Source: Eledone cirrhosa (lineage: Eukaryota). From it: a stretch of DNA of 64,000 nucleotides. Of this stretch, positions 1,678 to 64,000 are shown in pieces. The position numbers and the translations under genes are program-made. The notes under the pieces were generated by a model. That model worked only from the letters and a program-made list of their open reading frames with translations. It had not been told where the DNA came from and searched no databases. Where the stretch lies: positions 425,320,001 through 425,384,000 of the forward strand of contig OZ024740.1 in the NCBI GenBank assembly GCA_964016885.1. Direction: 5' to 3'. Within the stretch, counting starts at the first letter, position 1. Every line of letters begins with the position of its first letter.

Positions 1678-5137
<3,460 letters not shown>

Positions 5138-5158
5138 TTACATATAGATATATATGTG

Positions 5159-6156: not shown

Positions 6157-6237
6157 GAGGTGAGTAATATTGTAGGAGAATAAAACTATGCATATATCAG
6201 ATAAGTAGCACTCGACATATATATATATAAAGAAGAA

Positions 6238-6462: not shown

Positions 6463-6540
6463 TATATATATAATATGTATGATGATCATGTTTCTCAATA
6501 GATAACCTCAATTGACCTTGGTTCAGATCATCAATAATTC

Positions 6541-7087
6541 TAATTTAAAAGATATATTTAGAGAGAGAGAGTCATATATCGTTTGAGAAACGTAGTATTG
6601 TGTATATAATGCAAATAATATACAGGTAAAATTAAAGGCGGAAAAAGTCATATCTTTCTTACAGCCCTGTTTCATAATCCAAAATACCGAAGCAAATCGA
6701 TCTAAGTAATCGACTATCGATTACCAACTATCGATTTTGGTAAAGCAAAAGACGAGGAACTATGGTAAAGACAAGGAACTATTTATATGAGAAAATTGTC
6801 TTCCAATCTGTACAAGATACCTTTATATCTGTCGAGAGAGGCTGTCTAAGCTAACGTTGGCTTTACTACAATCGATAGTTGGTAATCGATAGGTGATAAC
6901 TTAGATCGATTTACTTCGTCTTTTTAAATTTATTATGAAACAGTACTGTAAGGAAGATATGACTTTTTTCACCTTAAAGTAAGTATTTTGTCCTGAATAT
7001 CAATTGCATTATATATTTGTACAACATACTGTGTTTCTCAAAAGATATATGACTCTTTCTCTCTCTCTAAATATATCTTTTAACTTA
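6541..7087. mobile_element. MITE/fold-back element with ~200-bp imperfect inverted repeats
   Basis: 6545-6747 mirrors 6859-7085 (e.g. ctatcgattaccaactatcgatt / aatcgatagttggtaatcgatag). Confidence 0.75.
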
Positions 7088-10454: not shown

Positions 10455-12175
10455 ACAACAACAACCACAGCAACAGCGGCGGCGGCAGTAGTCGTAGTAC
10501 TGCAGCAACAACAAAAGTAACAGCAGCTCTGACGACAACAACAGCAGCAAAGAAAAACCAATCTCATTTGCAGGTATCGCAAAGAACCTGGAAACCATCC
10601 TCATAACAAATGAGGAATTAAAGGAAGCGAAGAAGATGGTGACAAAATATGGACACCGACCAATCTGCAAGGCAGCCGAAAAGTTTTTCGAAACCCAACA
10701 GCACGGAACGGTCTCGTACCGTACAGTAAGTACAAAATCCCGTAGGGTTGAAAGAGCCACAGAGGCTCAAATACAAAAAGCCTTGGGGTCTGTGTGGCAG
10801 CGGAAAACGCACATCACCCGAGGCAAGAAATATGCCACCGTAGACGTACTTTTTGCCACACCCCAGGAGGCAAAGGCTCAATCCTTAGTGACCCTAAGGA
10901 GCGAGGAAATGGTGTTGGTGTCCTCCTACTGCGGGCAAAAAATAGTGAGGGTCAAACTGACCCCCCCCCCCGGGATGGCCCCTTCTTGGCTGGCGGCGTC
11001 TGTCCTCGTCGGAATCGAGGACAAAACAACTGTACTGCAAGTACAGAAAAAAGTAAGAGAAGATTGGGTCGGCACCTCTATTGAGATGTTAATCCAAACC
11101 AACCAGGAGTGCATCGAAGCTATCCCGGATGTGATAGACTTCGATAACGGCACTCAACTGCCCATAAGTGTTGAGGGCAAACGCCCGAAATGCTTTCGCT
11201 GTTGATCGAAGACTCACCTCAGGGCCTTCTGCAACGAGAAGACCCTGAGAAAGGAGAAAACCCTCCACCTTCCGAAACCGGCTCCACGGCTACCAGCAAC
11301 AGGACAAGCGGCAACCAGGAACGATAGGTCCGTGGCACCCATACCCACGCCACGGAAATCAAAAACAGCAGCAGCAGTGGAAGTATTAACAACAACAACA
11401 GCAATACCAAATGCAGCTGCAACAGAGACTCCAGTGCAAACATCACCAACAACAACAAGTGAAAGAGTGGAGCTGGTACACCTCCCCGACCTCACAGAAT
11501 CAGACATGGAGTGTGAGGTGGGAGAGGGATGGCAAAAGGTCGTAAGAAGGCACAAACGCAGAAGCAGCGCATCGTCGCCTTCGAAAAGGTAGGAAAGAAA
11601 TGAAAAAAGGGTAAAGGCTACTGCAAAGAGACTCAGAGCAGCAACACCACCAACACCATCGCCACCCACACTAGCACCACCATCACCACCGGCGACAACC
11701 CCACCGCCAACAACAACAACACCTTCAACACCACCACCACAAGCACCAACATCGCAAACACAACAACAAAACACACACACCCAGCAACAACGACAAGAAA
11801 TAGCAGAACTACCCCCACCCCCAGAAAAACAGATGCACGGCAATAAATACACACAACAAGAAACTAATGACTTACATAATTGAACACACAGACATTTCAC
11901 AACACGACTACATAATACCAGCACCAATCAAAACGCCAACTAACATAAGACTGCTAAAAATGGCACAGAAACAATACACGAACATTAAAACGAAATTCCC
12001 CAACGCAGTTGGTGATTTCAGAGACCTAGGAGGGACTCTCAACCGAAGAGTATATTCGGACATACTCATAGAAGAGCCGACGACCAACCGAAGGGACGAT
12101 TCAACGGTCCCTTCACTAGACGATCAAGTGAAAAGGGATGGAAAAGCCATCCCTCCTCTACGAAAAGTACGGTAA
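10037..12175 (+). pseudogene. Element A ORF1 (gag-like with CCHC knuckle), disrupted
   Basis: VEGKRPKCFRC*SKTHLRAFC aligns with VEGRRPACYLCMERGHVKANC of element C ORF1; stops at 11203 and 11590; frameshifts. Confidence 0.8.
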
Positions 12176-12210
12176 GTGGTCTTTCCCATCTTTTCCACTC
12201 TATCTTAAAC

Positions 12211-15200: not shown

Positions 15201-15618
15201 CCGGTCATGTCCGAGATGCGCGCAGGGCGACGAAACCGTCCTGCACGCACTCGTCCAGTGTCCGAGCATTGCTGACTTGTGGGTTTATTTCGAACGCCTG
15301 CTGTCGCGTGTAGGACGGATCCAGCTATCAGCTGAGTCCATCGTGAGGATTGCCCCGCCCTCTTCCTTTAGCCGGGAAGGGCAGGCAGTTTTTATCTGTC
15401 TGGTGGCCATGGCGAAAGAGATAGTATGGTGGACACGTTTGAAAGGTCTGAAGACGAACACTTACCTTTTCGGTGATGCCCTGATTAATTTTTTCAAATT
15501 TCATTTGAAAAGGAAAATCAGGGTAGAAAGGGAAGTGATCTCCTCCCAGCATTTTGTTTGAAAGATGGGTGAGAGACGCAAGAATGGCCCGAGTGATACT
15601 CTGAGTATGTGTCTGTAA
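12211..15618 (+). pseudogene. Element A ORF2 (APE endonuclease + RT + C-terminal zinc finger), frameshifted
   Basis: SINARGL, SETR, GDWN, YTDHK, KSPGLDG, DQSKAF, QGCPLS, YAGD (mutated YADD), CPRC..H..C spread over several frames. Confidence 0.92.
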
Positions 15619-28740: not shown

Positions 28741-28778
28741 CCTCGGTAGGCAACTTAATAATGGTTTCTAATTTTGGC

Positions 28779-31700
28779 AGAAGGCCGAAGTCAGATTATA
28801 TCGACTCAAGTACTGGTACTTTATGTTACCAGAAGGCCGAAGTCAGATTATATCGACTCAAGTACTGGTACTTTATGTTACCAGAAGGCCGAAGTCAGAT
28901 TATATCGACTCAAGTACTGGTACTTTATGTTACCAGAAGGCCGAAGTCAGATTATATCGACTCAAGTACTGGTACTTTATGCTACCAGAAGGCCGAAGTC
29001 AGATTATATCGACTCAAGTACTGGTACTTTATGTTACCAGAAGGCCGAAGTCAGATTATATCGACTCAAGTACTGGTACTTTATGCTACCAGAAGGCCGA
29101 AGTCAGATTATATCGACTCAAGTACTGGTACTTTATGCTACCAGAAGGCCGAAGGCAGATTATATCGACTCAAGTACTGGTACTTTATGTTACCAGAAGG
29201 CCGAAGTCAGATTATATCGACTCAAGTACTGGTACTTTATGCTACCAGAAGGCCGAAGTCAGATTATATCGACTCAAGTACTGGTACTCTATGTTACCAG
29301 AAGGCCGAAGTCAGATTATATCGACGCAAGTACTGGTACTCTATGTTACCAGAAGGCCGAAGTCAGATTATATCGACTCAAGTACTGGTACTCTATGTTA
29401 CCAGAAGGCCGAAGTCAGATTATATCGACTCAAGTACTGGTACTTTATGTTACCAGAAGGCCGAAGGCAGATTATATCGACTCAAGTACTGGTACTTTAT
29501 GCTACCAGAAGGCCGAAGGCAGATTATATCTACTCAAGTACTGGTACTTTATGCTACCAGAAGGATGAAGTCAGATTATATCGACTCAAGTACTGGTACT
29601 TTATGCTACCAGAAGGCCGAAGGCAGATTATATCGACTCAAGTACTGGTACTTTATGTTACCAGAAGGCCGAAGGCAGATTATATCGACTCAAATACTGG
29701 TACTTTATGCTACCAGAAGGCCGAAGGCAGATTATATCGACTCAAGTACTGGTACTTTATGCTACCAGAAGGCCGAAGGCAGATTATATCGACTCAAGTA
29801 CTGGTACTTTATGCTACCCGAAGGCCGAAGGCAGATTATATCGACTCAAGTACTGGTACTTTATGTTACCAGAAGGCCGAAGGCAGATTATATCGACTCA
29901 AGTACTGGTACTTTATGTTACCAGAAGGCCGAAGTCAGATTATATCGACTCAAGTACTGGTACTTTATGCTACCAGAAGGATGAAGGCAGATTATATCGA
30001 CTCAAGTACTGGTACTTTATGCCACCAGAAGGCCGAAGTCAGATTATATCGACTCAAGTACTGGTACTTTATGTTACCAGAAGCCCGAAGTCAGATTATA
30101 TCGACTCAAGTACTGGTACTTTATGCTACCAGAAAGCCGAAGTCAGATTATATCGACTCAAGTACTGGTACTTTATGTTACCAGAAGCCCGAAGTCAGAT
30201 TATATCGACTCAAGTACTGGTACTTTATGTTACCAGAAGGATGAAGTCAGATTATATCGACTCAAGTACTGGTACTTTATGCTACCAGAAGGCTGAAGTC
30301 AGATTATATCGACTCAAGTACTGGTACTTTATGCTACCAGAAGGCCGAAGTCAGATTATATCGACTCAAGTACTGGTACTTTATGCTACCAGAAGGCCGA
30401 CGGCAGATTATATCGACTCAAGTACTGGTACTTTATGCTACCAGAAGGCCGAAGGCAGATTATATCGACCCAAGTACTGGTACTTTATGCTACCAGAAGG
30501 CCGAAGGCAGATTATATCGACTCAAGTACTGGTACTTTATGTTACCAGAAGGCCGAAGGCAGATTATATCGACTCAAGTACTGGTACTTTATGCTACCAG
30601 AAGGATGAAGTCAGATTATATCGACTCAAGTACTGGTACTTTATGCTACCAGAAGGATGAAGGCAGATTATATCGACTCAAGTACTGGTACTTTATGCTA
30701 CCAGAAGGATGAAGGCAGATTATATCGACTCAAGTACTGGTACTTTATGTTACCAGAAGGATGAAGGCAGATTATATCGACTCAAGTACTGGTACTTTAT
30801 GCTACCAGAAGGATGAAGGCAGATTATATCGACTCAAGTACTGGTACTTTATGCTACCAGAAGGCCGAAGTCAGATTATATCGACTCAAGTACTGGTACT
30901 CTATGTTACCAGAAGGCCGAAGTCAGATTATATCGACTCAAGTACTGGTACTTAATGTTACCAGAAGGATGAAGTCAGATTATATCGACTCAAGTACTGG
31001 TACTTTATGTTACCAGAAGGCCGAAGTCAGATTATATCGACTCAAGTACTGGTACTTTATGTTAGCAGAAGGCCGAAGTCAGATTATATCGACTCAAGTA
31101 CTGGTACTTAATGTTACCAGAAGGATGAAGTCAGATTATATCGACTCAAGTACTGGTACTTTATGTTACCAGAAGGCCGAAGGCAGATTATATCGACTCA
31201 AGTACTGGTACTTTATGTTACCAGAAGGCCGAAGTCAGATTATATCGACTCAAGTACTGGTACTTTATGTTGCCAGAAGGCCGAAGTCAGATTATATCGA
31301 CTCAAGTACTGGTACTTTATGTTACCAGAAGGCCGAAGGCAGATTATATCGACTGAAGTACTGGTACTTTATGCTACCAGAAGGCCGAAGTCAGATTATA
31401 TCGACTCAAGTACTGGTACTTTATGCTACCAGAAGGATGAAGGCAGATTATATCGACTCAAGTACTGGTACTTTATGCTACCAGAAGGATGAAGTCAGAT
31501 TTTATCGACTCAAGTACTGGTACTTTATGCTACCAGAAGGATGAAGTCAGATTATATCGACTCAAGTACTGGTACTTTATGTTACCAGAAGGATGAAGGC
31601 AGATTATATCGACTCAAGTACTGGTACTTTATGCTACCAGAAGGCCGAAGTCAGATTATATCGAATCAAGTACTGGTACTTTATGTTACCAGAAGGCCGA

Positions 31701-34238
31701 AGGCAGATTATATCGACTCAAGTACTGGTACTTTATGTTACCAGAAGGCCGAAGGCAGATTATATCGACTCAAGTACTGGTACTTTATGTTACCAGAAGG
31801 CCGAAGGCAGATTATATCGACTCAAGTACTGGTACTTTATGTTACCAGAAGGCCGAAGGCAGATTATATCGACTCAAGTACTGGTACTTTATGTTACCAG
31901 AAGGCCGAAGGCAGATTATATCGACTCAAGTACTGGTACTTAATGTTACCAGAAGGCCGAAGGCAGATTATATCGATTCAAGTACTGGCACTTTATGTTA
32001 CCAGAAGGCTGAAGGCAGATTATATCGACTCAAGTACTGGTACTTTATGTTACCAGAAGGCCGAAGTCAGATTATATCGACTCAAGTACTGGTACTTCAT
32101 GTTACCAGAAGGCCGAAGGCAGATTATATCGACTCAAGTACTGGTACTTAATGTTACCAGAAGGATGAAGTCAGATTATATCGACTCAAGTACTGGTACT
32201 TCATGTTACCAGAAGGCCGAAGTCAGATTATATCGACTCAAGTACTGGTACTTTATGTTACCAGAAGGCCGAAGTCAGATTGTATCGACTCAAGTACTGG
32301 TACTTTATGTTACCAGAAGTCCGAAGGCAGATTATATCGACTCAAGTACTGGTACTTAATGTTACCAGAAGGCCGAAGTCAGATTATATCGACTCAAGTA
32401 CTGGTACTTTATGTTACCAGAAGGCCGAAGGCACATTATATCGACTTAAGTACTGGTACTTAATGTTACCAGAAGGCCGAAGGCAGATTATATCGACTCA
32501 AGTACTGGTACTTTATGTTACCAGAAGGGTGAAGGCAGATTATATCGACTCAAGTACTGGTACTTTATGCTACCAGAAGGCCGAAGTCAGATTATATCGA
32601 CTCAAGTACTGGTACTTTATGCTACCAGAAGGCCGAAGTCAGATTATATCGACTCAAGTACTGGTACTTTATGTTACCAGAAGGCCGAAGGCACATTATA
32701 TCGACTTAAGTACTGGTACTTAATGTTACCAGAAGGCCGAAGTCAGATTATATCGACTCAAGTACTGGTACTTTATGTTACCAGAAGGGTGAAGGCAGAT
32801 TATATCGACTCAAGTACTGGTACTTTATGTTACCAGAAGGATGAAGTCAGATTATATCGACTCAAGTACTGGTACTTTATGCTACCAGAAGGCCGAAGTC
32901 AGATTATATCGACTCAAGTACTCGTACTTTATGCTACCAGAAGGATGAAGGCAGATTATATTGACTCAAGTACTGGTACTTTATGCTACCAGAAGCCCGA
33001 AGTCAGATTATATCGACTCAAGTACTGGTACTTTATGTTACCAGAAGGATGAAGTCAGATTATATCGACTCAAGTACTCGTACTTTATGCTACCAGAAGC
33101 CCGAAGTCAGATTATATCGACCCAAGTACTGGTACTTTATGCTACCAGAAGGATGAAGTCAGATTATATCGACTCAAGTACTGGTACGTTATGCTACCAG
33201 AAGGCCGAAGTCAGATTATATCGACTCAAGTACTCGTACTTCATGCTACCAGAAGGATGAAGGCAGATTATATTGACTCAAGTACTGGTACTTTATGCTA
33301 CCAGAAGGATGAAGGCAGATTATATCGACTCAAGTACTGGTTCTTTATGTTACCAGAAGGATGAAGGCAGATTATATCGACTCAAGTACTGGTACTTTAT
33401 GCTACCAGAAGGCCGAAGTTAGATTATATCGAATCAAGTACTGGTACTTTATGTTACCAGAAGGCCGAAGGCAGATTATATCCACTCAAGTACTGGTACT
33501 TTATGTTACCAGAAGGCCGAAGGCAGATTATATCGACTCAAGTACTGGTACTTTATGTTACCAGAAGGCCGAAGTCAGATTATATCGACTCAAGTACTGG
33601 TACTTTATGTTACCAGAAGGCCGAAGTCAGATTATATCGACTCAAGTACTGGTACTTTATGTTACCAGAAGGATGAAGGCAGATTATATCGACTCAAGTA
33701 CTGGTACTTTATGTTACCAGAAGGATGAAGGCAGATTATATCGACTCAAGTACTGGTACTTTATGTTACCAGAAGGCCGAAGGCAGATTATATCGACTCA
33801 AGTACTGGTACTTTATGTTACCGGAAGGCCGAAGTCAGATTATATCGACTCAAGTACTGGTACTTTATGTTACCAGAAGGCCGAAGTCAGATTATATCGA
33901 CTCAAGTACTGGTACTTTATGTTACCAGAAGGCCGAAGTCAGATTATATCGACTCAAGTACTGGTACTTTATGTTACCAGAAGGCCGAAGTCAGATTATA
34001 TCGACTCAAGTACTGGTACTTTATGTTACCAGAAGGCCGAAGGCAGATTATATCGACTCAAGTACTGGTACTTTATGTTACCAGAAGGATGAAGGCAGAT
34101 TATATCGACTCAAGTACTGGTACTTTATGTTATCAGAAGGCCGAAGGCAGATTATATCGACTCAAGTACTGGTACTTTATGTTACCAGAAGGATGAAGGC
34201 AGATTATATCGACTCAAGTACTGGTACTTTATGTTACC
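28779..34238. repeat. 52-bp tandem satellite, 105 units, derived from SINE internal sequence
   Basis: Unit agaaggccgaagtcagattatatcgactcaagtactggtactttatgttacc; agaagg at 28779 and 34239, 5460 bp apart = 105 x 52; flanks are the two SINE ends. Confidence 0.97.
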
Positions 34239-36399
34239 AGAAGGATGAAGGCAAAGTTAACCTTCGCTGATTTGTACTGAGAAAATCCGGAGAAAATAAT
34301 GCTCAACGCTTTAATGACTTAACCACCAGCCCGATGAAAATAATATATGCTCAAGGGAAGAAATGCTATAAAATAGTTTATAAAATGGGGTGAAGACCCT
34401 TAAAGATGGAAAACGAAGTTGCCATTGGCTGCTATGAGAAATTGAACCCCATATCTTTTTGTTACCGACTGGACATTAAGCCAAGGAACCGTGACAACTC
34501 TTACCGTTTTAAATTAGACTGCCGAATCACAACTTTCTAATGTCCACACTCATCGTGTTTACGTAGCTGACCTTTCGGACTTTGATGATGATGATGACCT
34601 CTTTATTAATCAAAATGGCTGTCTCAGATAAAACAATAAACGTTATAAATATGAGTTTTATAATACATGTTGATATAAACAAAATTATAACAGAAACTAA
34701 TATAAACACATCAAAAGTTGATAAAATATGAAACATGTATAAAATCTTTATTAAAAATGTAATATAAAATATGAAAAACATTTAGGGTTACCCACCCACA
34801 CATGACTGGGAATTCATATTTCTGATCACATATCATACATATACTTTCCAAGGATAACTGAAATCTCCCGCAAGCATTCTTGTAGGGAGTTCATTGATAA
34901 ATGAACCCACATCTGGACAAAAGTCCATTATTTTAAAATATATTTATATATTTCTATCGTTGATAAAACTTAAAGTCTATCTTCCAGATGCTCTCTGGAA
35001 AACTCCCCAATTCTCTGGTCCGCCGGGTCTGTTTCGTCTAAATCATTTCGTAAACTAAGCCAGTTCCCACGACTGTGACACAACACACTGTTTCATCTCT
35101 CTTCAAAAGCCTTCTAAGAAAATCATATTTTGTTTTGATTTTGTTTCCATTTTTATCATTTTTGTATGTCTATTGTAGGTCTGTTTGCCCTTCTCAGACT
35201 CCCTTTATCCCTCATTTTCAAGCGTTAATGGAGGGATGCTGTTAGAAGAGGAGCTTTGCCCTCCTGCACCTCCGAGAATGAGCATGGCATACACCGTGTC
35301 CTCTATCTATGAAAGGAATAAAATGGCAGTAGGAACCAGATGAATGCATTAAGAGGTAGTTAAAGAGGGGCGGGGAATCATCAAAACCCGATGGTAGGAT
35401 GCACGGAAGAGAGAAAGTGCTTGGGTGTTAATAAACAACAGACGATAGAGAGTAAACATGGCTTCAGTTAAACTACTTGAGGTCTCGTTCGGTCCGTGGA
35501 CAGGAACTGGAGTGAGGTTAACGCAAAGATGGCCAGTCACACACACAAATGTCCTGAGAGGAAAATATCCATGAAAGGTAGGGTAAAGATGTCAAAAGCT
35601 TCATTCACCTTGAGGTCTTCGGGTCTTGTCCAGTTCTCATCTGATCAGTTTTGGACGACTGCTCTTCTGCTTTTTGCTAAAATACCACTTTCCTCAAACA
35701 CATTTCTTGCGGTGGACAAGGCATTCAAAACCTGTTGATGCACTGACATGTGCTCAGGTTGCGGCATTTGCAAAGATTTCCCGACGTAAAGAGTATGATT
35801 TTGTCTTCTCTGTGACACGCTTTTCCACACTTCATTCCCTTGACAGAGCTGCAGCCTTGGATGAAGAAAATATTAGGCACCATAGCCCTCTGCCAGTGGC
35901 ACAATGTGATTGTTGAAAGCTTCTCATTATCAATCGATAGTGGAGTATTGGTGACGAAGTGTGACAACATATTTAGAGAGGACGAGAATGACCTGGCTTA
36001 TCTATTCTAGCGGATTTAGGTGTAGAAAATATGGATAATTTCCAGAAATTTTTGGCTTGGCTGTTCTATCGGGAGGACATTGTTAGTTAAAGATTCCCGC
36101 CGAAGTGAATCAAGGATTTGAAATGTCTGAATAAACATTAGTTTGTTTTAAATGTTATATATATTTTAAAGTGTTGATTATAGAATTCATTTGATATCAG
36201 TTGAAAGCGTCTTACTTCCCCATTTTATGGCTGTTTTGGTTCTGTTCGGTTTGTCAATTTGGGAAATGGACTGTCCGCATTCAGTTGGAGGGTGGATCGC
36301 GGGTTGGTTTAGCAAGAATTGTGAGTCCAGGCTGGCGTTCAATTTAGAGTGTTTGCTTAGTGTTTTGTGGACTGATTGGAGCAATAACGGTTTTACTTA

Positions 36400-48124: not shown

Positions 48125-48290
48125 TACACAGAAACGCACACACAGACACAAATATATATACATATACATATGCATACACGCACACATACACACACATATA
48201 CATATGTGTATGTACATAAAAGCAACTAGTGCACATAATTATCTAATGTATTCTGTTTCTTTATTCATCGCACCATCTATCTATCTATCT

Positions 48291-51200
48291 CAAAAATGCG
48301 CATGGTTGGCTATTCAGACCACAAATTAGTGACCTGCATGGTCAACCTTGACATAACTCATAGACAGGGACCCGGTTACTGGAAGCTCAACTTGTCCTTA
48401 CCGGCAAGTAAGGCTTACAGGAACCGGATTAGCACTTTAGTTAAGGAGCGGTTGACGGGCGCCATCGTCAACAGCAGGTGGTGGGGATCTCTCAAAAGAG
48501 AGATTAGAGTAGTCTCTATAGAATTTAGTAAGGAGTTAGCCTCAAATAGAAATAGAAAGGAAAGGGAGTTGGTAGATAGTGTAGAAGAGGCAATTAGAAG
48601 CGGCGACGTGGCCAGAGTGCTAGCGTCGAGAACGGCCCTGGGCCAGTTCTTCGACGCGAAACACGAAGGCTGCATCGTCCGAAGCAAAATACGTGCTCTG
48701 GGAAACGAGGGGACCAAAGCTGTTAGCTGGGCCCGCGTGACAGAAGCCAAAAGAGGGAGCAGATCCACTATCCGGTCTTTGCGAGACCAGGATGGACGGG
48801 TGATCCTTGAACCTAAGCAGATGTGCGAGGCTTTTCAAAAGCACTTTGCCGGATTGTTCGGAAGGGGCGGGGGGCCGGTTGGGGACGTGGACTTCGGTCC
48901 ATACCTCGACGGCCTGCCGCGTCTCTCGGACAGGGAGGCGAAGTCCTGCGAGGAGCCGATTTCAGCCGCTGAGATAGAGGACGTGCTGAGCAAATGCGGC
49001 AAACGCAAATCCCCGGGTCTCGATGGGCTTCCATACGAACTATATCTAGCTATGCCGGACTTGTTCCCCGAACTCCTCGAGGCGGTCTACTGCAACTGGC
49101 AACAGAACGGGAGAATTCCCTGTGCTGTGACCAAGGGCGTAGTCACGCTAGTAAGGAAGGACGAGAACAAGGGGGACGATATAAATAATTTCAGGCCCAT
49201 AACTCTGCTAAATACAGAGTTACAGATTTTGGCCAAGGTGCTAGCAAAGAGGTTGGCGCTTGTCGTGGGCAACCTGGTGGGAGATGCGCAGACATGTGCT
49301 ATCCCGTCCAGGTCCATCCACGATAACCTCCACCTCATGCGATACATCATAGAGAGGGTTGGGAACGAACCCGGCTTTGGTGGGGCCCTGATCAACTTGG
49401 ATCAATCTAAGGCATTCGATAGGGTTGACCATGGTTATCTGGATGCGGTGCTAGCGGCGGCAGGCTTCGGACCCGTTTTCAGGGGCTGGATCAATGCCAT
49501 GCACAGCAGCCGCATCTGCTCGAGGGTCAAGGTGAACGGCTACCTCTCGGAGCCGTTCGAAATCGCGCGGTCCATCCGACAGGGGTGCCCTCTCTCCTCC
49601 CTTCTTTATGTAATGACTCTAGAGCCACTGCTGCGGAAGTTGGAGTTGTTGCAGGGCATCCCGTTGGAACCGGGATTGCGGAAAGCGGTGTCAGCCTACG
49701 CCGATGACGTAACAGTAACGGTGTCGACGGCCTCGGAAATCAGGGCGATCGGCACCTTACTGGAGGAGTACGAAAGGTTTACAGGGGCTAAGCTGAACCG
49801 GGACAAGTCGATCGGTCTGCAACTCGGCACGTGGAGGGGCAGATCGATGCCCTCCGATGGCGTCGTCGGGCGCTGGACGGAGGGCCCGGTGAAGTTGCTC
49901 GTGGTCTGGTTCGGACCAGACCTCCAGGTGGAGAAGAACTGGGGTGAGGTGACGAACAGGGTGTTTGCACTGACCCAGAAGTGGGCCGAGTGCAAACTGT
50001 CCCTGAAAGGACGGGCGGAGGTGGCGAACACTTACATAGCGTCCGTCATCTAGTACCGCCTGACCGTTGTGCCTTGCCCAAGGGAAACGCTCGCCAAAAT
50101 GGAGCGCGCACTCTTCCAATTCCTTTGGAAGAAGCGGGCTCCTATGGTGAGGAGGTCCATCTGCTGTCAACACCCTTCGAAAGGAGGGCTGGGGATGCCG
50201 TGGATAATGATACGTAAACACGCATTAAGGCTACGGCACCTTCAGGTATTCCCCTCCGGTCAACCGGTGTGGGCCCCGTTTGTGAGGCGAGCCTTTCCCA
50301 GACTCGTCTCACTCACCGAGCTGCAATCCTGGGTCAAGCAAAGACCGAGAAAACTGGGCGCCTGGCACACCGAGTGTGTCCAGGCACTCACGGCTCTCTG
50401 GCAGGCGGACCCGGCTGTCAGTGGAGAATCCACCTCGTCATTCTATAGAGGGCTGGTTGTTAGCAGGTGCGACGACGCCCTCGGAGAAGCCCTAGGCATG
50501 GAGGAAGACGAACTGGCCAACCTGTTCGGTAGGACGTTCAGCCCGGGACCCATGGATAACTTCCAGAGGTCCCTGGCCTGGCAATGCTACAGAAGGGCTC
50601 TGCCCGTTCGAGAAAGGCTCTACAGACACGGGCGCCCGGGTAGGGACCCATCGAAAAAGATCTGTCCCAGATGCGTGTGCGACGAGGAAACCGTTGCACA
50701 CGCATTGGTACACTGCTCGGGCATTGCCGATCTGTGGGGTTATGTCGAACAACTGCTGTCAAGGGTGGGACCAATCCGGTTGACCACCGAGTCTATTGTA
50801 ACGATCAAGCCACCTCCCCTCTTCAAAAACGAAGGAGAGGCGGTGTTTCTGTGCGTAATAGCCATGGCGAAAGAGGTTGTATGGTGGACGCGTCTGAAAG
50901 GACTGAGGTCAGACACCTTTCTCTCTGGCCAACAACTGGTCCGTTTCTTCCGATATCATTTCGGAAGAAGGATCAGGATGGAGAGAGAGGTGCTGCACCC
51001 CAGCCGTTTCTATGAAAGATGGGTGAAAGTGGCGAGAATGGCCCGTGTGAATGGGCCTTCACTCTACATCAGATTATAGGTGAGGAAGATGAAAGACCAA
51101 GGGAGCACCCCTTCTCTGTGCTCCTGAGGAGAAGGGTTGCACACTTTTTTCGGGGGTGTGTGCGACCCCCCAAGGCGCCTCCTCTCTATTGAGGACTTTG

Positions 51201-51594: not shown

Positions 51595-53407
51595 ATGGCG
51601 GAAAAGATGGCAGACATGTCTGCCATTAGCTCTGCCACGCCCCCCAAGTCTGAAGAACAAAAAATAATTACAACAAAATTAGACATTGAAACAAACAAAC
51701 AAAATGAAAAAACAAATGTTAAGGAAAATGAGCAAACAGAAAACAAACAAACAGAAAATAATACAAATAACGACAGGGCAACTTTCGCCCAGAAAACAAA
51801 ACAATCCATTACATACACACCAATTGACCTAACTGCCGCCAGAGAAAAACTGGCCGAAGCAAAGAAACACATTGTTTTGGGGGAGAACGGAATGTTTTCC
51901 ATTAACTCCCCCCCAGAATTCAAGAAAGCCAGAGCAGAAAACACAGTTATATACAGAACTATACTGAACCAGACAAGAAAGCCAGCACAGCCCAGCCAAA
52001 TGGAAATAGAGTTAGTCCTAAAAGACTATATGAAGAATATTCTCTTCATACGAAAGGACCGACTCTATGGCAGCATTTCGGTCCTAACAAGAGACAAAGA
52101 AACGGCGGAGAAGCTTTCCCTAAGCCCACTCTCGTCGACAACATATAGCTTCTATCCCTCCTACATGGGTAGAAGAACACAGAGAGTAAAAGTAAAAACA
52201 ATGCTGCCCACAATGGACTTCTGGTGGGCTATTGCTGGCTTCATTGATATGGGCGAAGACACTATGCTGTCAATGGGGAAGGCAACTGGAGATGCGTTCC
52301 TGGGAATGGGCCTCGACATACTAGTCCAAATGAGGCCCGAAAGAATAGCACAAATCCCGGATCGCATCTGGCTGGATGACCTTACCCCAATAGACATAAT
52401 TGTAGAGGGGAGAAGACCAGCATGCTATTTATGCATGGAAAGGGGACACGTTAAGGCTAACTGCCCGAAACGTATCCCCCAAAAAGGACTATTGCCCACA
52501 CCCACCACAAACAGTACACCAGCACCACCCACCTCCAAAAATACACTAATACCACACACAGCAAACAAAATACAGACACCACCAACCACAAACACAACAC
52601 AAACATCACGACACAAAAATCACCACCACCAACCACAACACAAACATCACCACCACCATCACCAACCACAAGCACGACACAAACATTACCACCACCACCA
52701 CCACAAAACCCATTCCAAACAAATAATAAAAAAAACAGTAACAAATCTACCCCTCCCGCAAAAAAAAAACAACCACACAACACGTCCCTCCCACCTAGCG
52801 CTGAAGAGTTTCCCCCAACTTCTGAAGAAGAAGGAGGAGAAGCCTTCAGACAAGTTAAAAGAAAAAAAAGAAAACACACACCCAGCACACCACAAATAAC
52901 CCACACACAAACACCAACTCCAATCAAAAACACCCCACCCTCAACAAACAAAAATAAATCTGCGCCTCCCCTCTCCGAAACATTGACAGCATCACAAAAA
53001 AAGACGTTGCAATACACATATATAAATAAAGAAAACAAAAAACTGGTTAAATTAATAAACAATAACCCTATGGTGCAGACCGAAGGGCCAAACTTTATCT
53101 CAACAGAGAACTTCACCCATTTAAAAATGATAAAGGTCCCTCTGGACCTTTATCGTTCCTTAAAAGAACAATTTAGACGGGACGTGAGCCCCCCCCCTGT
53201 TTAAAACCGTTGAATCGCGTCCTCTTGAAAGATTTCCCCATAACCGCCCCTCTCCCTGACACAACTCCAAATACCCCAACCCCACCACACACGTGTACCC
53301 CCACACCACCACAAAACATCCCTCCACCCAACACACCTGATGCCATGGAAATTACGCAACCCGGAGAGGTAAGTGCTTTTCTTTCTTCACTTTCAACACC
53401 AAAATAG
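51595..53407 (+). CDS. Element C ORF1 (CCHC zinc knuckle, Thr/Pro-rich C-terminal region); open to 52899, remainder continues in shifted frames
   Basis: CYLCMERGHVKANC; homologous to element A ORF1; frame breaks lie in low-complexity/homopolymer sequence (mutation or sequencing error). Confidence 0.75.
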
Positions 53408-53412
53408 ATCAA

Positions 53413-56400
53413 TTGAGAGTTGGCTGTTTGAACGCGCGTGGCCTGAGCTCAGCTTGGAAGCAAGCAAAGCTTCTAAGTGACCTCAGGTCACAAAGTATAG
53501 ATGTGATGGTTGTTTGCGAGAGTCGGATCAGCAGCGTGAGACAGCTGGCGCCCGCCTTCGATGACTTTGAGATGCACGCATCTCTCTGTCAACCCGGAGG
53601 CGGGGGGGGAGTTGCCGTACTGCTGGATAAACGTCTGACTCTCGACGTACAGATTGTTCACTCGGACCCGGGGGGTCGATTACTGGTGCTGGACGTCGGA
53701 GGCGGTGAAGGCGGGGCTTTCAGACTGGTCGGTCTTTATGCTCCCTTCGGGGCGGAAAGAGCCGACTTCTTCCAGCGTCTGGAGACTTTTCTAGGAACGT
53801 CGCGTTCCCTGCTTTTAGTGGGGGACTGGAATGGAATCCTAGATGCGCGTTGGGACTATGCAGGGGCATGTCCCGATAGAGGGGGGTGTAGCAGCCTCAA
53901 GGGGTTACTCGATCGATTCGACCTGGTCGATAGATTTCGACTAGATTGTCCAACTGCGCCAACCTGGACCTGGGCAAACCGCAGTGGACAATCTAGATCG
54001 TACCTAGATAGGTTTTTAGTTAGGAGTAAGGATAGGGACGTATTTAGTTGTCCAGAACTGATCATGGTTGGCTATTCAGATCACAAATTAGTGACCTGCG
54101 TGGTCAACCTTGATAGAACGCATAGACAGGGTCCCGGTTACTGGAAGATGAACTTGTCCTTACCGACAAAGAAAGATTACAGACACCGGATTAGTAGCTT
54201 AGTTAAGATACGGTTGACGGGAGCGATCGTCAACAGTAGGTGGTGGATATCTCTAAAGAGAGAGATTAGAGTAAGTTCGATAGGTTACAGTAAGGAACTA
54301 GCGGCGAATAGAAATAGGAGGGAAAGGGAGTTAACATATAAACTAGAAGAGGCGATTAGGAGCGGAGACGTAGCCAGAGTGTTAGCGACGAGAACGGCAT
54401 TGAGCCAGTTCTTTGACGCGAAGCACGAAGGCTGCGTTGTCCGAAGTAAAATACGTGCTTTAGGAAACGAGGGGACCAAAGCTGTTAGCTGGGCCCGCGT
54501 GACAGAAGCCAAGAGTGGGATTAAATCCACCATTCGGTCTTTGCGAGACCAGGATGGACGGGTGATCCTTGAACCTGAGCGAATGTGCGAGACCTTTCAA
54601 AGGCACTTTGCTCGACTGTTCGGAGGTGGCGGGGGGCCGGACGGGGATGTGGACTTCGGTCCATACCTCGACGGTCTACCGCGTCTTTCGAGCGGCGAAG
54701 CGGAGTGCTGCGAAAGGCCAATCACAGCCACTGAAATCGGGGAAGCGCTCAGCCAATGCAGCAGACGCAAATCCCCGGGTCTCGATGGTCTACCATACGA
54801 ACTTTATTTAGCTATGCCGGTCTTGTTCTCCGAACTCCTCGAGGCTGTCTATTGCAACTGGCAACAGAACGGGAGAATTCCCTGTTCTGTGACCAAGGGC
54901 GTGGTCACGCTAGTGAGGAAGGACGAGAGCAAAGGGGACGACTTAAGTAACTTTAGGCCCATAACTCTGCTGAATGCAGAGTTACAGATTTTGGCCAAGG
55001 TGTTGGCGAAGAGGTTGGCGCTTGTGGTGGGTGGTTTGGTGGGAGACGCGCAGACATGCGCTATCCCGTCCAGGTCCATTCACGACAACCTCCACCTCAT
55101 GCGATACATCATAGAGAGGGTTGGCTACGAACCCGGCTTTGGTGGGGCCCTGATCAACTTGGATCAATCTAAGGCGTTCGATAGGGTCGACCATGGTTAC
55201 CTGGATGCGGTGCTAGCGGCGGCGGGCTTCGGACCCGTTTTCAGGGGCTGGATTTCTGCCATGCACAGTGGCAACATCTACTCTAGGATTAAAGTAAACG
55301 GCTACCTCTCGGAGCCGTTTCAAATCACCCGATCCATCAGACAGGGGTGCCCCCTCTCCTCCCTTCTGTACGTATTGACTCTTGAGCCACTGCTGCGGAA
55401 GTTGGAGTTGCTGCGGGGCATACCCCTGGAACCGGGATTGCACAAAGCGGTCTCGGCCTATGCCGACGACGTAACAGTAATGGTGGCGGACGCCTCGGAA
55501 ATCGGGGCGATCGCCACCCTACTGGAGGAATACGAAAGGCTGACGGGGGCTAAGCTGAACCAGGACAAGTCAGTCGGTTTGCAACTCGGAACGTGGAGGG
55601 GCAAACCGATGCCGTTAGACGGTGTCGTCGGGCGGTGGACGGAGGGCCCGGTGAAGCTGCTCGGGGTCTGGTTCGGACCGGACCTCCAGGTGGAGAAGAA
55701 TTGGGGCGAGGTGACGAGCAGGGTGTTTGCGCTGACCCAGAAGTGGGCCAAGTGCAAACTATCACTGAAAGGTCGGGCGGAGGTGACGAACGCTTACATA
55801 GCGTCCGTCATCTACTACCGCCTGACCGTCGTGCCTTGCCCCAAGGAAAAGCTCACCATCATGGAACGCATGCTCTTCCAGTTCCTCTGGAAGAAGCGGC
55901 CTCCCATGGTGAGGAGATCCATCTGCTGCCAGCACCCTTCGAAAGGAGGGCTGGGTATGCCGTGGCTGTTGATGCGTAGGCACGCATTGAGGCTACGGCA
56001 TCTACAGGTATTCCTCAACGGTCAGCCGGTGTGGGCCCCGTTTGTGAGGCGAGCCTTCCCACAGCTCGTCTCGCTCACCGAACTGCAATCCTGGGTGAAG
56101 CAAAGACCGAGAAAACTGGGCAACTGGCACACTGAGTGTGCCCAGGCGCTCACGGCTATCTGGCAAGCGGACCCGACTGTCAGTGGAGAATCCACCTCGA
56201 CATTCTATAGAGGGTTGGTGGCTAGCAGGGGCGACGACACCCTTGGAGAGTCGCTAGGCATGGAGGAGGACGAACTGGCCAGCCTGTTCGGTAGAACTTT
56301 CGGCCCGGGACCCATGGACAACTTCCAGAGGTCCCTAGCCTGGCAGTGTTACCGGGGGGCTCTGCCCGTTCGAGAAAAGCTCTACAGACACGGGCGCCCG

Positions 56401-56841
56401 GGCAGGGATCCTGCGAAAAAGATCTGTCCCAGATGCGTGCGCGACGAGGAAACCGTTGCGATTGCACTGGTACACTGCCCGGGCGTTGCCGATCTGTGGG
56501 GCTACGTCGAACGACTGCTGTCGCGTGTGGCGCCGATTCGATTAACCGCCGAGTCTGTGGTGAACATCAAGCCGCCTCCTCCCTTCAGAAATGAAGCAGA
56601 GGCGGTCTTTCTGTGCGTAATAGCCATGATGAAAGAGGTTGTGTGGTGGACGCGCCTGAAAGGTCTGAGGTCGGGTGACTTTCTCTCCGGCCATCACCTG
56701 GTTTACTTCTTCCGATACCACTTCGGAAGAAGAATCAGGATGGAGAGAGAAGTGCTTGGTCCCAGACAGTTTTATGAAAGGTGGGTGAAAGAAGCGAGAA
56801 TGGCCCGTGTAAATGGGCCTTCTCTCTACATTGTTCTGTAG
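53413..56841 (+). CDS. Element C ORF2: APE endonuclease + reverse transcriptase + C-terminal zinc-binding domain, 1142 aa
   Basis: LNARGL, CESR, LYAP, GDWN, YLDR, SDH; KSPGLDG, FRPITLLN, DQSKAFDRV, QGCPLS, YADD; no internal stop; no N-terminal ATG. Confidence 0.96.
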   Translation: MRVGCLNARGLSSAWKQAKLLSDLRSQSIDVMVVCESRISSVRQLAPAFDDFEMHASLCQPGGGGGVAVLLDKRLTLDVQIVHSDPGGRLLVLDVGGGEGGAFRLVGLYAPFGAERADFFQRLETFLGTSRSLLLVGDWNGILDARWDYAGACPDRGGCSSLKGLLDRFDLVDRFRLDCPTAPTWTWANRSGQSRSYLDRFLVRSKDRDVFSCPELIMVGYSDHKLVTCVVNLDRTHRQGPGYWKMNLSLPTKKDYRHRISSLVKIRLTGAIVNSRWWISLKREIRVSSIGYSKELAANRNRRERELTYKLEEAIRSGDVARVLATRTALSQFFDAKHEGCVVRSKIRALGNEGTKAVSWARVTEAKSGIKSTIRSLRDQDGRVILEPERMCETFQRHFARLFGGGGGPDGDVDFGPYLDGLPRLSSGEAECCERPITATEIGEALSQCSRRKSPGLDGLPYELYLAMPVLFSELLEAVYCNWQQNGRIPCSVTKGVVTLVRKDESKGDDLSNFRPITLLNAELQILAKVLAKRLALVVGGLVGDAQTCAIPSRSIHDNLHLMRYIIERVGYEPGFGGALINLDQSKAFDRVDHGYLDAVLAAAGFGPVFRGWISAMHSGNIYSRIKVNGYLSEPFQITRSIRQGCPLSSLLYVLTLEPLLRKLELLRGIPLEPGLHKAVSAYADDVTVMVADASEIGAIATLLEEYERLTGAKLNQDKSVGLQLGTWRGKPMPLDGVVGRWTEGPVKLLGVWFGPDLQVEKNWGEVTSRVFALTQKWAKCKLSLKGRAEVTNAYIASVIYYRLTVVPCPKEKLTIMERMLFQFLWKKRPPMVRRSICCQHPSKGGLGMPWLLMRRHALRLRHLQVFLNGQPVWAPFVRRAFPQLVSLTELQSWVKQRPRKLGNWHTECAQALTAIWQADPTVSGESTSTFYRGLVASRGDDTLGESLGMEEDELASLFGRTFGPGPMDNFQRSLAWQCYRGALPVREKLYRHGRPGRDPAKKICPRCVRDEETVAIALVHCPGVADLWGYVERLLSRVAPIRLTAESVVNIKPPPPFRNEAEAVFLCVIAMMKEVVWWTRLKGLRSGDFLSGHHLVYFFRYHFGRRIRMEREVLGPRQFYERWVKEARMARVNGPSLYIVL

Positions 56842-57072: not shown

Positions 57073-57120
<48 letters not shown>

Positions 57121-57243
57121 ACAATTGACGTAAATTCTCTATTTGCACACTCCAATATATAATATACACAGTAAGATATTCATTAATATTATCTGTTAAT
57201 CAATCGCAGTAAAATCGATTGATTAACACATGTGTATACCTTA

Positions 57244-57290
<47 letters not shown>

Positions 57291-57406
57291 TTGAAAAAAA
57301 AATGAAAACGAAATTTCATTTCTCACTCTTAGTATGGCACTTACTTAAATGTAAGTATGTATGTATACGTACATACATATATGTATACAGACGTACAGTA
57401 GCATGC

Positions 57407-57451
<45 letters not shown>

Positions 57452-57550
57452 CATATATACACATATGCATACAGGTACACATACATATATGCACGCATCA
57501 GTTTAGCGTGCATATATGTATGTGTACCTGTATGCATATGTGTATATATG

Positions 57551-57603
<53 letters not shown>

Positions 57604-57841
57604 GCATGCTACTGTACGTCTGTATACATATATGTATGTACGTATACATACATACTTACATTTAAGTAAGTGCCATACTAAGAGTGAGAAATGAAATTTC
57701 GTTTTCATTTTTTTTCAACTTATCGTTTTCGGTATGCCTGACCGATTTAACTCACTCAATATGCAAATTAGGCTGCTCAGCCGTTAATTTTCATAAGGAA
57801 AGTATATACTTTCGAACGTTCAACTATCTGGCAGATGGGTA

Positions 57842-57886
57842 AACGGTGCTGATGATAGCTAACAAGCTTGAAACTAGTACATCGTT
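57842..57886 (+). ncRNA. Minimal type I hammerhead ribozyme, unit 1
   Basis: AACGGUG CUGAUGA U AGCU aaca AGCU U GAAA CUAGU A CAUCGUU; predicted cleavage after 57879. Confidence 0.9.
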
Positions 57887-58063
57887 CCTGTGTCAGTGTT
57901 GAACAAAAAGGTGACGTGGTTGCCTTAACACCGTATGGCATAAATTCAGGCTGTTCGCTTTGTTGACAAACAAACGAACAAAGCGGCCGGCGTTATAATA
58001 AACGCCGGCTAAACTGATGCGTGCATATATGTATGTGTACCTGTATGCATATGTGTATATATG

Positions 58064-58108
<45 letters not shown>

Positions 58109-58346
58109 GCATGCTACTGTACGTCTGTATACATATATGTATGTACGTATACATACATACTTACATTTAAGTAAGTGCCATACTAAGAGTGAGAAATGAA
58201 ATTTCGTTTTCATTTTTTTTCAACTTATCGTTTTCGGTATGCCTGACCGATTTAACTCACTCAATATGCAAATTAGGCTGCTCAGCCGTTAATTTTCATA
58301 AGGAAGGTATATACTTTCGAACGTTCAACTATCTGGCAGATGGGTA

Positions 58347-58391
58347 AACGGTGCTGATGATAGCTAACAAGCTTGAAACTAGTACATCGTT
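58347..58391 (+). ncRNA. Minimal type I hammerhead ribozyme, unit 2
   Basis: Identical to unit 1. Confidence 0.9.
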
Positions 58392-58569
58392 CCTGTGTCA
58401 GTGTTGAACAAAAAAGGTGACGTGGTTGCCTTAACACCGTATGGCATAAATTCAGGCTGTTCGCTTTGTTGACAAACAAACGAACAAAGCGGCCGGCGTT
58501 ATAATAAACGCCGGCTAAACTGATGCGTGCATATATGTATGTGTACCTGTATGCATATGTGTATATATG

Positions 58570-58616
<47 letters not shown>

Positions 58617-58854
58617 GCATGCTACTGTACGTCTGTATACATATATGTATGTACGTATACATACATACTTACATTTAAGTAAGTGCCATACTAAGAGTGA
58701 GAAATGAAATTTCGTTTTCATTTTTTTTCAACTTATCGTTTTCGGTATGCCTGACCGATTTAACTCACTCAATATGCAAATTAGGCTGCTCAGCCGTTAA
58801 TTTTCATAAGGAAAGTATATACTTTCGAACGTTCAACTATCTGGCAGATGGGTA

Positions 58855-58899
58855 AACGGTGCTGATGATAGCTAACAAGCTTGAAACTAGTACATCGTT
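58855..58899 (+). ncRNA. Minimal type I hammerhead ribozyme, unit 3
   Basis: Identical to unit 1. Confidence 0.9.
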
Positions 58900-59076
58900 C
58901 CTGTGTCAGTGTTGAACAAAAAGGTGACGTGGTTGCCTTAACACCGTATGGCATAAATTCAGGCTGTTCGCTTTGTTGACAAACAAACGAACAAAGCGGC
59001 CGGCGTTATAATAAACGCCGGCTAAACTGATGCGTGCATATATGTATGTGTACCTGTATGCATATGTGTATATATG

Positions 59077-59119
<43 letters not shown>

Positions 59120-59357
59120 GCATGCTACTGTACGTCTGTATACATATATGTATGTACGTATACATACATACTTACATTTAAGTAAGTGCCATACTAAGAG
59201 TGAGAAATGAAATTTCGTTTTCATTTTTTTTCAACTTATCGTTTTCGGTATGCCTGACCGATTTAACTCACTCAATATGCAAATTAGGCTGCTCAGCCGT
59301 TAATTTTCATAAGGAAAGTATATACTTTCGAACGTTCAACTATCTGGCAGATGGGTA

Positions 59358-59402
59358 AACGGTGCTGATGATAGCTAACAAGCTTGAAACTAGTACATCG
59401 TT
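59358..59402 (+). ncRNA. Minimal type I hammerhead ribozyme, unit 4
   Basis: Identical to unit 1. Confidence 0.9.
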
Positions 59403-59579
59403 CCTGTGTCAGTGTTGAACAAAAAGGTGACGTGGTTGCCTTAACACCGTATGGCATAAATTCAGGCTGTTCGCTTTGTTGACAAACAAACGAACAAAGC
59501 GGCCGGCGTTATAATAAACGCCGGCTAAACTGATGCGTGCATATATGTATGTGTACCTGTATGCATATGTGTATATATG

Positions 59580-59624
<45 letters not shown>

Positions 59625-59863
59625 GCATGCTACTGTACGTCTGTATACATATATGTATGTACGTATACATACATACTTACATTTAAGTAAGTGCCATACT
59701 AAGAGTGAGAAATGAAATTTCGTTTTCATTTTTTTTTCAACTTATCGTTTTCGGTATGCCTGACCGATTTAACTCACTCAATATGCAAATTAGGCTGCTC
59801 AGCCGTTAATTTTCATAAGGAAAGTATATACTTTCGAACGTTCAACTATCTGGCAGATGGGTA

Positions 59864-59908
59864 AACGGTGCTGATGATAGCTAACAAGCTTGAAACTAGT
59901 ACATCGTT
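59864..59908 (+). ncRNA. Minimal type I hammerhead ribozyme, unit 5
   Basis: Identical to unit 1. Confidence 0.9.
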
Positions 59909-60085
59909 CCTGTGTCAGTGTTGAACAAAAAGGTGACGTGGTTGCCTTAACACCGTATGGCATAAATTCAGGCTGTTCGCTTTGTTGACAAACAAACGAA
60001 CAAAGCGGCCGGCGTTATAATAAACGCCGGCTAAACTGATGCGTGCATATATGTATGTGTACCTGTATGCATATGTGTATATATG

Positions 60086-60134
<49 letters not shown>

Positions 60135-60214
60135 GCATGCTACTGTACGTCTGTATACATATATGTATGTACGTATACATACATACTTACATTTATATAT
60201 ATATATATATATAT

Positions 60215-60723
60215 ATATTAATGAATTTCTGTCTGTTTGTTTGTGTGTTTGTTTGTGGATTTGTTTGTGAACCTAAAACTCAAAAACTACCAAACCGATG
60301 TTAATGAAACTTGACACGTGTGTGGGGGCTCATGCCCAGTTAATTTCTTACGTATATTTCATTTTAATCAAAGGGTTCCCGGGGGTACACAACCCCCGCT
60401 GAACATTTTTTCCCTTCGATTTATATGAAATTTAAACCATAGGTAAATGACAAGATATGATGCCCATTCATAAAAGTTTTGAATTGATATTTTGTAAAAA
60501 ATTATTTGCGAGAAACAAAATAAGAATAAGATTTAATAATGTAATTTTGATTTGTTATATTACAAAAAATAATGTTTTCCAATTTTTCATGCATTACATT
60601 TTACATTGAGTAATATTGAAATAAAGAGATGTTCTCCATAAATTATATCACTGATTTAAAATCAATCATCATTTTCTTACAAAAAAATGTGTGAAACGCA
60701 GCGAGGCGCGGGTAATTTGGCTA

Positions 60724-62770: not shown

Positions 62771-62837
<67 letters not shown>

Positions 62838-63070
62838 TTAGAAACACACAGATACATGCGGACACACACATATATACATGAATGCATCCGCACCCAACTG
62901 TGAGTTAAGGGTGCCAACTTCACCGATGTTGCTCAATGAATGACTGGGACAGACCAATTCAGTTGAACTAGACTGAACAAGTATCAGAGTTAAAAATACA
63001 TTATGAAGAGAGAAGAAACATTTAGATATAATTAGTAATAAAATGTATCATACCTAAACTGCTCCTAAAT

Positions 63071-63160
63071 TCCTCGACTACGTAGTTTCGTGGCATAAAC
63101 AAAAACAATATATCATAAAGATATAGAGTCCTTGCGAGGTCTGCCGACTTATCAAGAGGA
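63071..63160 (-). ncRNA. Hammerhead ribozyme with U3-A8 core variant
   Basis: UCCUC UUGAUAA GUcGGCA...UGCCAC GAAACUACGUAGU C GAGGA. Confidence 0.75.
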
Positions 63161-63634
63161 TACCTCATTTTACTAGTCTCAAGAACGCGTCTACACGACG
63201 TGAGAAAGAATCCCAAAAGGCGGAGGGGGAGATAGTCACGCGATATAACGGTCGAGAAACAGAGCTAAGCCCCTTATAACCCCGAAGAAAATACCACGGA
63301 GGCGGAGGGGGTATTTATATCGAGGCCGTAGAAGAGGTGGTGAAGAAGGCGAGAAGTATGAGTAATGGAAGCTTTCCAGCTGTCCCCACACTTCAAAGAT
63401 TGCTCGACCAGAGGGAGTTATTAACAATATATTTAGAAACACACAGATACATGCGGACACACACATATATACATGAATGCATCCGCACCCAACTGTGAGT
63501 TAAGGGTGCCAACTTCACCGTTGTTGCTCAATGAATGACTGGGACAGACCAATTCAGTTGAACTAGACTGAACCAGTATCAGAGTTAAAAATACATTATG
63601 AAGAGAGAAGAAACATTTAGATATAAATGAGGTA

Positions 63635-63724
63635 TCCTCTTGATAAGTCGGCAGACCTCGCAAGGACTCTATATCTTTATGATATATTGTTTTTGTTTAT
63701 GCCACGAAACTACGTAGTCGAGGA
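63635..63724 (+). ncRNA. Hammerhead ribozyme with U3-A8 core variant (inverted copy)
   Basis: Same sequence as 63071-63160 on the opposite strand. Confidence 0.75.
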
Positions 63725-64000
63725 ATTTAGGAGCAGTTTAGGTATGATACATTTTATTACTAATTATATCTAAATGTTTCTTCTCTCTTCATAATATATT
63801 TTTAACTCTGATACTGGTTCAGTCTAGTTCAAATGAATTGGTCTGTCCCAGTCATTCATTGAGCAACATCGGTGAAGTTGGCACCCTTAACTCACAGTTG
63901 GGTGCGGATGCATTCATGTATATATGTGTGTGTCCGCGTGTATCTGTGTGTTTCTAAATATATTGTTAATAACTCCCTCTGGTCGAGCAATCTTTGAAGT

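Follow-up and report, generated by a model that had tools for sequence, protein, structure and literature searches.

At 57.5 kb, the window analysed here, i.e. the whole stretch of 64,000 nucleotides from Eledone cirrhosa (contig OZ024740.1, positions 425,320,001 to 425,384,000), holds a single insertion of a non-coding hammerhead repeat in a (TA)n tract. The element is of a known kind and leaves a known footprint, to which the present analysis adds a strict rule for the pairing of its ends that makes the insertion mechanism testable. The original prediction had described a palindrome at this place, and it is borne out: the reverse complement of 57288-57496 differs from 57506-57722 at two points only (TA length, by 8 nt, and a single base within a T run). 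The 9-nt spacer does carry on the antisense sequence of the inverted arm. This palindrome is the short arm (57286-57507) of a head-to-head insertion, of which the long arm consists of 5.3 copies of a 506-bp non-coding unit (unit positions are numbered from window 58014). Both outer ends pass into (TA)n, and the main arm stops at unit 156, the 'short' one of two fixed 3' ends. The coordinates of these and other features are collected in Table 1. Just left of the insertion, after the LINE-type (long interspersed nuclear element) element at 53341-56841, lies a (TATC)n tract (57074-57120).

Table 1. Features of the window
Feature	Position	Strand	Remarks
Left (TA)n target tract	57246-57288	.	Tandem Repeats Finder
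Inverted arm	57286-57507	-	unit 501-506, then 1-215; outer end 57286 is the fixed 'long' 3' end
Tail of ~60 nt (unit 157-215), at the 57286 end only	57286-57345	-	stem-loop fold
Spacer, 9 nt	57497-57505	-	antisense sequence of the inverted arm carried on
Self-complementary overlap GC, 2 nt	57506-57507	.	microhomology at the head-to-head junction
Main arm	57506-60195	+	unit 6 to 156; 5.3 tandem copies of the ~506-bp unit, 98-99% alike
Type I hammerhead motif, copy 1	57842-57886	+	predicted cut after unit 371
Hammerhead motif, copy 2	58347-58391	+	
Hammerhead motif, copy 3	58855-58899	+	
Hammerhead motif, copy 4	59358-59402	+	
Hammerhead motif, copy 5	59864-59908	+	
Right (TA)n target tract	60196-60218	.	
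Diverged subfamily copy, ~82% to the unit	4486-5138	main arm -	inverted arm 5035-5138
Second retrozyme family (B)	62831-64000	-, +	592-bp unit, core UUGAUAA; - arm 62831-63626, + arm from 63625
LINE-type element	53341-56841		open frame of 1166 codons, APE endonuclease and RVT_1
LINE-type elements, broken relatives	48239-51079 and 12016-15561		with zf-RVT
52-bp satellite	28778-34244		105 copies, 95% matches

Chimeric reads that fold back on themselves could produce a palindrome during sequencing or assembly, and the junction at 57.5 kb does lie in a stretch (57239-57671) that the comparison with read contigs masked as repeat. One contig of run X1 has an opposite-strand joint at 57799/57923, and contigs of run X2 (5 in one comparison, 15 in another) pass from 57723 into (TA)n; as both runs are possible sources of the assembly, neither is counted as independent. 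However, chimeras would mirror the flanking DNA too, and the flanks differ here; moreover, throughout the family the arms end at fixed sites, the junctions vary from locus to locus and many arms are not mirror copies at all, so that an artefact is extremely unlikely. The contigs of run X4 gave no match to the array, those of X5 gave one piece and those of X9 two. These contigs of X5 and X9, from two other organisms, cover at low depth 285 bases of the unit (2 differences) and 156 bases (0 differences), respectively.

The repeat as a retrozyme

The 506-bp repeat is non-coding, lacks long terminal repeats (LTRs) and is dispersed and multi-copy. No open reading frame (ORF) of at least 150 codons lies over 57286-60195, and the array is without a reverse transcriptase (RT) or GIY-YIG frame. 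A pattern search found a type I hammerhead motif on the + strand in each of five consecutive units. It consists of stem I (7 bp), CUGAUGA, stem II (4 bp, the basal pair being U-U), GAAA, stem III (palindromic) and UA. An exact 40-mer of this motif has 8,318 matches in the 3.0-Gb genome. In the stretches fetched from the genome (L numbers below), the core CUGA(U/C)GA/GAAA/UA is kept in 370 of 391 motif copies, overlapping fetches included, and the pairing of stem I is conserved, with G-U, A-U and U-G replacing one another at one pair. An Rfam search returned no family at gathering score for the array, and there was no hammerhead among the 150 of 171 weak matches that were listed. I discarded the weak matches, which are miRNA-type hairpins on TA-rich sequence. 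Because Rfam does not report the motif, the hammerhead assignment rests on pattern and conservation; minimum-free-energy folding of the hammerhead stretches is no better than that of shuffles (z -0.68, +1.00 and -1.48) and was not used as support.

By its sequence the array fits the definition of an animal non-LTR retrozyme, with cleavage and circular RNA as predictions. The minimal stem III suggests dimeric cleavage. Metazoan non-LTR retrozymes (PMC7229834; bioRxiv 10.64898/2026.07.22.740005; here and below, comparisons refer to the available parts of the papers cited) likewise consist of tandem non-coding units with one type I hammerhead each; they are also AT-rich, present in thousands of copies, and accompanied by Penelope-like elements in the same genomes. 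The salamander motifs in these papers share the U-U at the base of stem II and the palindromic stem III. With 506 bp, the present unit exceeds the 150-450 bp given in PMC7229834 but falls into the range of 51-972 bp in bioRxiv 10.64898/2026.07.22.740005, where only one of nine predicted elements cleaved. The inverted arms, fixed 3' ends and TA targeting seen here are undescribed for retrozymes in the available parts of both papers. A literature search, with supplements and subscription papers (e.g. the Penelope reviews of 2005 and 2006) outside its scope, brought up no description of retrozyme insertions with an inversion, nor of start sites that are obligately paired.

Orientation and pairing of the ends

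As an unbiased sample I took the first 100 motif matches along contig C1, which form 31 clusters with 32 elements: 19 inverted, 12 non-inverted and one hidden by a gap (19 of the 31 resolvable elements are thus inverted). All 19 inverted copies are arranged head-to-head, their 5' ends meeting and their 3' ends pointing outward, and the inversion is therefore 5'-sided relative to the hammerhead, as the original prediction had it; inversions equally frequent at both ends were looked for and not seen (19/19 at the 5' side).

The 3' ends of the copies are fixed, either at unit 215 ('long') or at about unit 153-156 ('short'), and the 5' ends are scattered round the unit. In the unbiased sample, 49 of the 51 arm ends abutting (TA)n fall at unit 150-160 or 201-215, although, besides its own TA tract, the unit offers 53 TA/AT sites outside positions 9-150. 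The two end types have 147 and 616 exact-pattern matches in the genome, and non-inverted copies end at the same two sites. The approximately 60 nt between the sites have a stem-loop fold in both subfamilies of the window (z -2.97 for the segment of unit 2, and -2.30).

To these I added 40 stretches anchored on the exact long end and 40 on the exact short end, taken in list order with those already sampled skipped. Together with a best-hit set, the four samples (122 stretches) contain 94 head-to-head junctions, 73 of which can be typed at both ends: 14 unbiased, 25 long-anchored, 27 short-anchored (some of them neighbouring copies) and 7 from the best-hit set, the window included. In every one of the 73, a long end is paired with a short end, and neither long with long nor short with short occurs (binomial 1e-22 if the ends were independent at one half). 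The long end stands on the left in 35 of the 73 and on the longer arm in 38. A tail is present at one end only in 73/73, and (TA)n flanks are found at 57.5 kb and at the typed ends throughout. The tally omits L044, which holds no copy, and L031-L033 (G000:C4:352454466-352477948), a single-orientation array of about 23.5 kb with a long-site end and no detected inverted arm. Some insertions consist of little more than the tail between TA tracts (L141:4921-4982, unit 155-215; L149:233-277, unit 171-215), and in L053, L073, L137, L179 and L192 other short repeats are inserted inside the retrozyme arms.

Two insertion events unconnected with each other could in principle give the same back-to-back arrangement, and so could a DNA rearrangement that affected a one-armed copy afterwards. 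Copies do accumulate in shared TA tracts and at the ends of other elements (L110, L153, L159), and an automated table lists five tail-to-tail neighbours among the 122 stretches; these, however, lie 25-63 bases apart and represent either distinct copies or short matches to microsatellite. The head-to-head junctions have no TA tract between their arms, the arms have subfamily and private variants in common, and a constant pairing of long with short is not expected from independent events, which makes this explanation very improbable. Arms of one insertion share private variants and insertion-specific microsatellite patterns, and their divergence has a median of 0.75% within an insertion versus 2.9% between insertions (52 of the 73 have enough shared sites). 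Both arms of an insertion thus appear, from these sequence comparisons, to derive from one haplotype.

Other copies in the window

The original prediction had noted similar inverted segments elsewhere in the window, and these exist, at 5035-5138 and at the 63626 junction, both on the 5' side in hammerhead polarity. In the copy at 4486-5138, the inverted arm terminates on its outer side at the homologue of the long end, and the main arm stops within the unit's own TA tract, so that the short end is not seen. The diverged subfamily also has a copy without inversion, at 1098-1510; its motif is intact (core CUGACGA) and its 3' end is of the short type.

The element at 62831-64000 extends about 395 bases beyond the end of the window (L136) and belongs to a family, B, that is unrelated to the 506-bp family (A). 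Its core UUGAUAA (window 63635-63725) is a U3-A8 swap of the usual C3-G8 pair. The element ends at unit 591 and unit 427, and neither arm contains the other. In 20 stretches of this family, all 12 complete inverted copies pair the unit-427 end with the unit-591 end; five of the remainder are not inverted and three are incomplete or truncated. Neither arm lies within the other in 2 of the 12, the 63626 junction of the window included.

The same footprint in coding Penelope-like elements

As the original prediction stated, 5' inverted segments are known from Penelope-like insertions, and an inverted 5' copy with a one-sided tail is already established for these elements (PMC8557442; PMC3846280; PMC8969392). 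ORFs with RT and GIY-YIG are present elsewhere in the Eledone genome. In 20 stretches picked for long frames around GIY-YIG matches, an inverted copy with both ends readable was found in 11, and in all 11 a tail of about 37-62 nt is present at one end only, running into (TA)n, as judged by eye. Endonuclease-bearing Penelope-like insertions (PMC8557442; PMC3846280) resemble the retrozymes: on the 5' side they carry a head-to-head inverted copy that is truncated at its own 5' end, only one of their ends has a tail, their targets are microsatellites and no target duplication is discernible. The retrozymes differ in that they have no ORF and that both arms can be multimers; their tail measures 59-62 nt in family A or 165 nt in family B versus 30-40 bp in these papers, where a one-end tail occurs 'often' or 'optionally', as against 73/73 here.

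Penelope-like elements have already been proposed to mobilise retrozymes (PMC7229834; bioRxiv 10.64898/2026.07.22.740005). Whereas this role was previously based on co-occurrence and homology, namely shared ribozymes and terminal-repeat homology, the link drawn here is an insertion footprint, and no partner homology was found in the 40 GIY-YIG loci compared. The footprint ties retrozymes to Penelope chemistry without homology, and it argues against self-priming. It also bears on the Penelope-like elements themselves, for which the origin of inverted repeats and one-sided tails has been called undefined (PMC8557442).

Retrozyme copies lie in the TA tract right at the ends of coding Penelope-like elements (L110:1900-2545, L159:3845, L067:3289, L197:789), a position that can give them the appearance of a terminal repeat. 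The unit-like copies of L107 and L110 were considered as terminal repeats and rejected, as they are separate insertions near or at the end of the coding element.

Probable paired priming on one RNA

I consider it likely (probability roughly 0.8) that a Penelope-type RT-endonuclease uses two fixed sites of a single RNA to prime two complementary DNAs (cDNAs), one for each target strand that is cut. The endonuclease would cut both strands of the TA tract; one cDNA would start 3' of the approximately 60-nt stem-loop, giving the long end, and the other 5' of it, giving the short end. Both would run towards the 5' end of the RNA and halt at variable points, whereupon their 3' ends could anneal via a few bases (GC at 57.5 kb), each priming the second strand of the other. 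In favour of this, junction overlaps of at least 2 nt are present at 21 of the 44 junctions outside microsatellite, versus 17% in random joins; inserted bases occur at 10 of the 44. Twin priming of L1 is similar, as two cDNAs from opposite target strands, joined by microhomology, give an inverted 5' part. In L1, however, the second site varies and the parts meet without overlap; the present insertions have two fixed sites, and their arms mostly have hundreds of bases in common, so that a palindrome results.

The Penelope protein studied in vitro (Anolis Poseidon, a predicted dimer) likewise cuts and extends both target strands, and it uses AT-rich targets and two internal start sites at a stem-loop, which bound the tail (PMC11167929). 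Its start sites were used without target homology and, in the available part of that paper, without a difference between strands, whereas here TA microhomology is found at both ends and the sites would be paired across the strands, a pairing that I infer from the present data. With thousands of young copies and a strict pairing rule, the start site for each target strand becomes predictable for the existing in vitro assay.

The original prediction had proposed a fold-back of the cDNA or a template switch. In a fold-back, one cDNA or antisense RNA snaps back and copies itself, and microhomology serves to join the new end to the TA tract. Palindromes at the inverted junctions of Penelope elements have led to a proposal of self-priming, with an antisense template (PMC3846280); self-complementary stretches occur at some of the present junctions as well (overlaps of 16, 20 and 28 nt in L049, L055 and L153), and the shorter arm is contained in the longer one at 57.5 kb and in 50 of the 73 insertions. 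However, fold-back can yield only pairs of arms in which one is a sub-path of the other, and this excludes it in the 23 of 73 insertions where neither arm lies within the other; 15 of these have flush junctions (0-5 nt overlap), and in L150, L186 and L191 the arms share next to no sequence. These cases refute fold-back as the only route. Neither does it offer a reason why the copy should stop at the other fixed site, in 73/73, rather than at the unit's own TA tract. The 5' ends lie at varied positions around the unit, and for its outer end the inverted arm uses one of the two fixed 3' sites found in copies without inversion as well. As an account of the family I therefore hold fold-back to be quite improbable. 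At 57.5 kb, where the short arm lies within the long arm and the geometry permits it, it is disfavoured by the family rule, by which this locus has to be assigned. The Penelope link of the original prediction thus gains from the same footprint in coding elements, while fold-back as its general route does not stand.

A head-to-head DNA intermediate might also be formed first, after which the endonuclease would cut it at two staggered sites, leaving a tail at one end, before it is joined to the target. A one-sided tail has indeed been ascribed to endonuclease resolution of an intermediate (PMC8557442), and both ends are AT-rich, matching the preference of the enzyme (PMC11167929). Yet a symmetrical intermediate has both sites at both ends, and a strict pairing of long with short would need an additional asymmetry; non-inverted copies use the same two end sites, and tail boundaries have been mapped to start sites of reverse transcription (PMC11167929). 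This course of events seems unlikely.

Concerning the template, the predicted ribozyme cut site is crossed by 98 of 146 arms and none stops within 5 nt of it, which points to a circle or an uncut multimer rather than a cleaved linear monomer. Near-uniform units within each insertion favour a monomer bottleneck, as from a circle. Weighing against a circle are a non-fixed variant in units of both arms in L068/L069 and the use of uncut RNA as the main substrate in vitro (PMC11167929). It is conceivable, though I would put it forward only tentatively, that a Penelope dimer binds a single stem-loop of one circular ribozyme RNA and, from either side of it, primes the two target strands, the polymerases chasing each other round the circle and each displacing the cDNA of the other. 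In that case one event would write two back-to-back arrays, and the pairing of long with short would be a general signature of all endonuclease-bearing Penelope elements, explaining both their inverted repeats and their one-sided tail. Long arms of 46-61 nt, stopping near the short site, were found in 5 of the 73 insertions; they match the collision predicted on one RNA, but the excess is weak.

Several observations weigh against paired priming. To begin with, typing of both ends failed at 21 of the 94 junctions, where an end was cut off with the stretch, broken up by another repeat or missing; the interrupted ones in L053, L073, L179 and L192 are long with short by eye. The 50 insertions with one arm inside the other, the 57.5-kb locus among them, are geometrically compatible with fold-back. 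The junction overlaps given above come from mismatch-tolerant extension and are possibly somewhat inflated in length. Furthermore, the partner arm is strictly the nearest sequence in only 16 of 52 insertions and at least tied in 28, and conversion between the arms after insertion could equally make them alike. When the arms were compared in the register of units counted from the 3' end, the counts leaned, without deciding the matter, against a copying of the same units (39 versus 74 sites, or 32 versus 37 without one compound locus). If one stem-loop serves both primers, the long-site cDNA must displace the other after 60 nt; as most long arms run to hundreds of bases, one must suppose either that strands are displaced or that the primers sit on different units. 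The available part of PMC11167929 reports no difference between top- and bottom-strand start sites and no obligate pairing. Finally, no homologous terminal repeat beyond simple repeats was found in 40 GIY-YIG loci (150 scored of 10,597 candidates); in the absence of an autonomous element with a terminal repeat homologous to the unit among these loci, the enzyme is deduced from the footprint.

A further hammerhead motif

A third hammerhead motif, on the + strand near 6358 and with a long stem II, lies among the inverted repeats at 6218-7087 of the window, and a motif resembling it is also present in L102 and L109.
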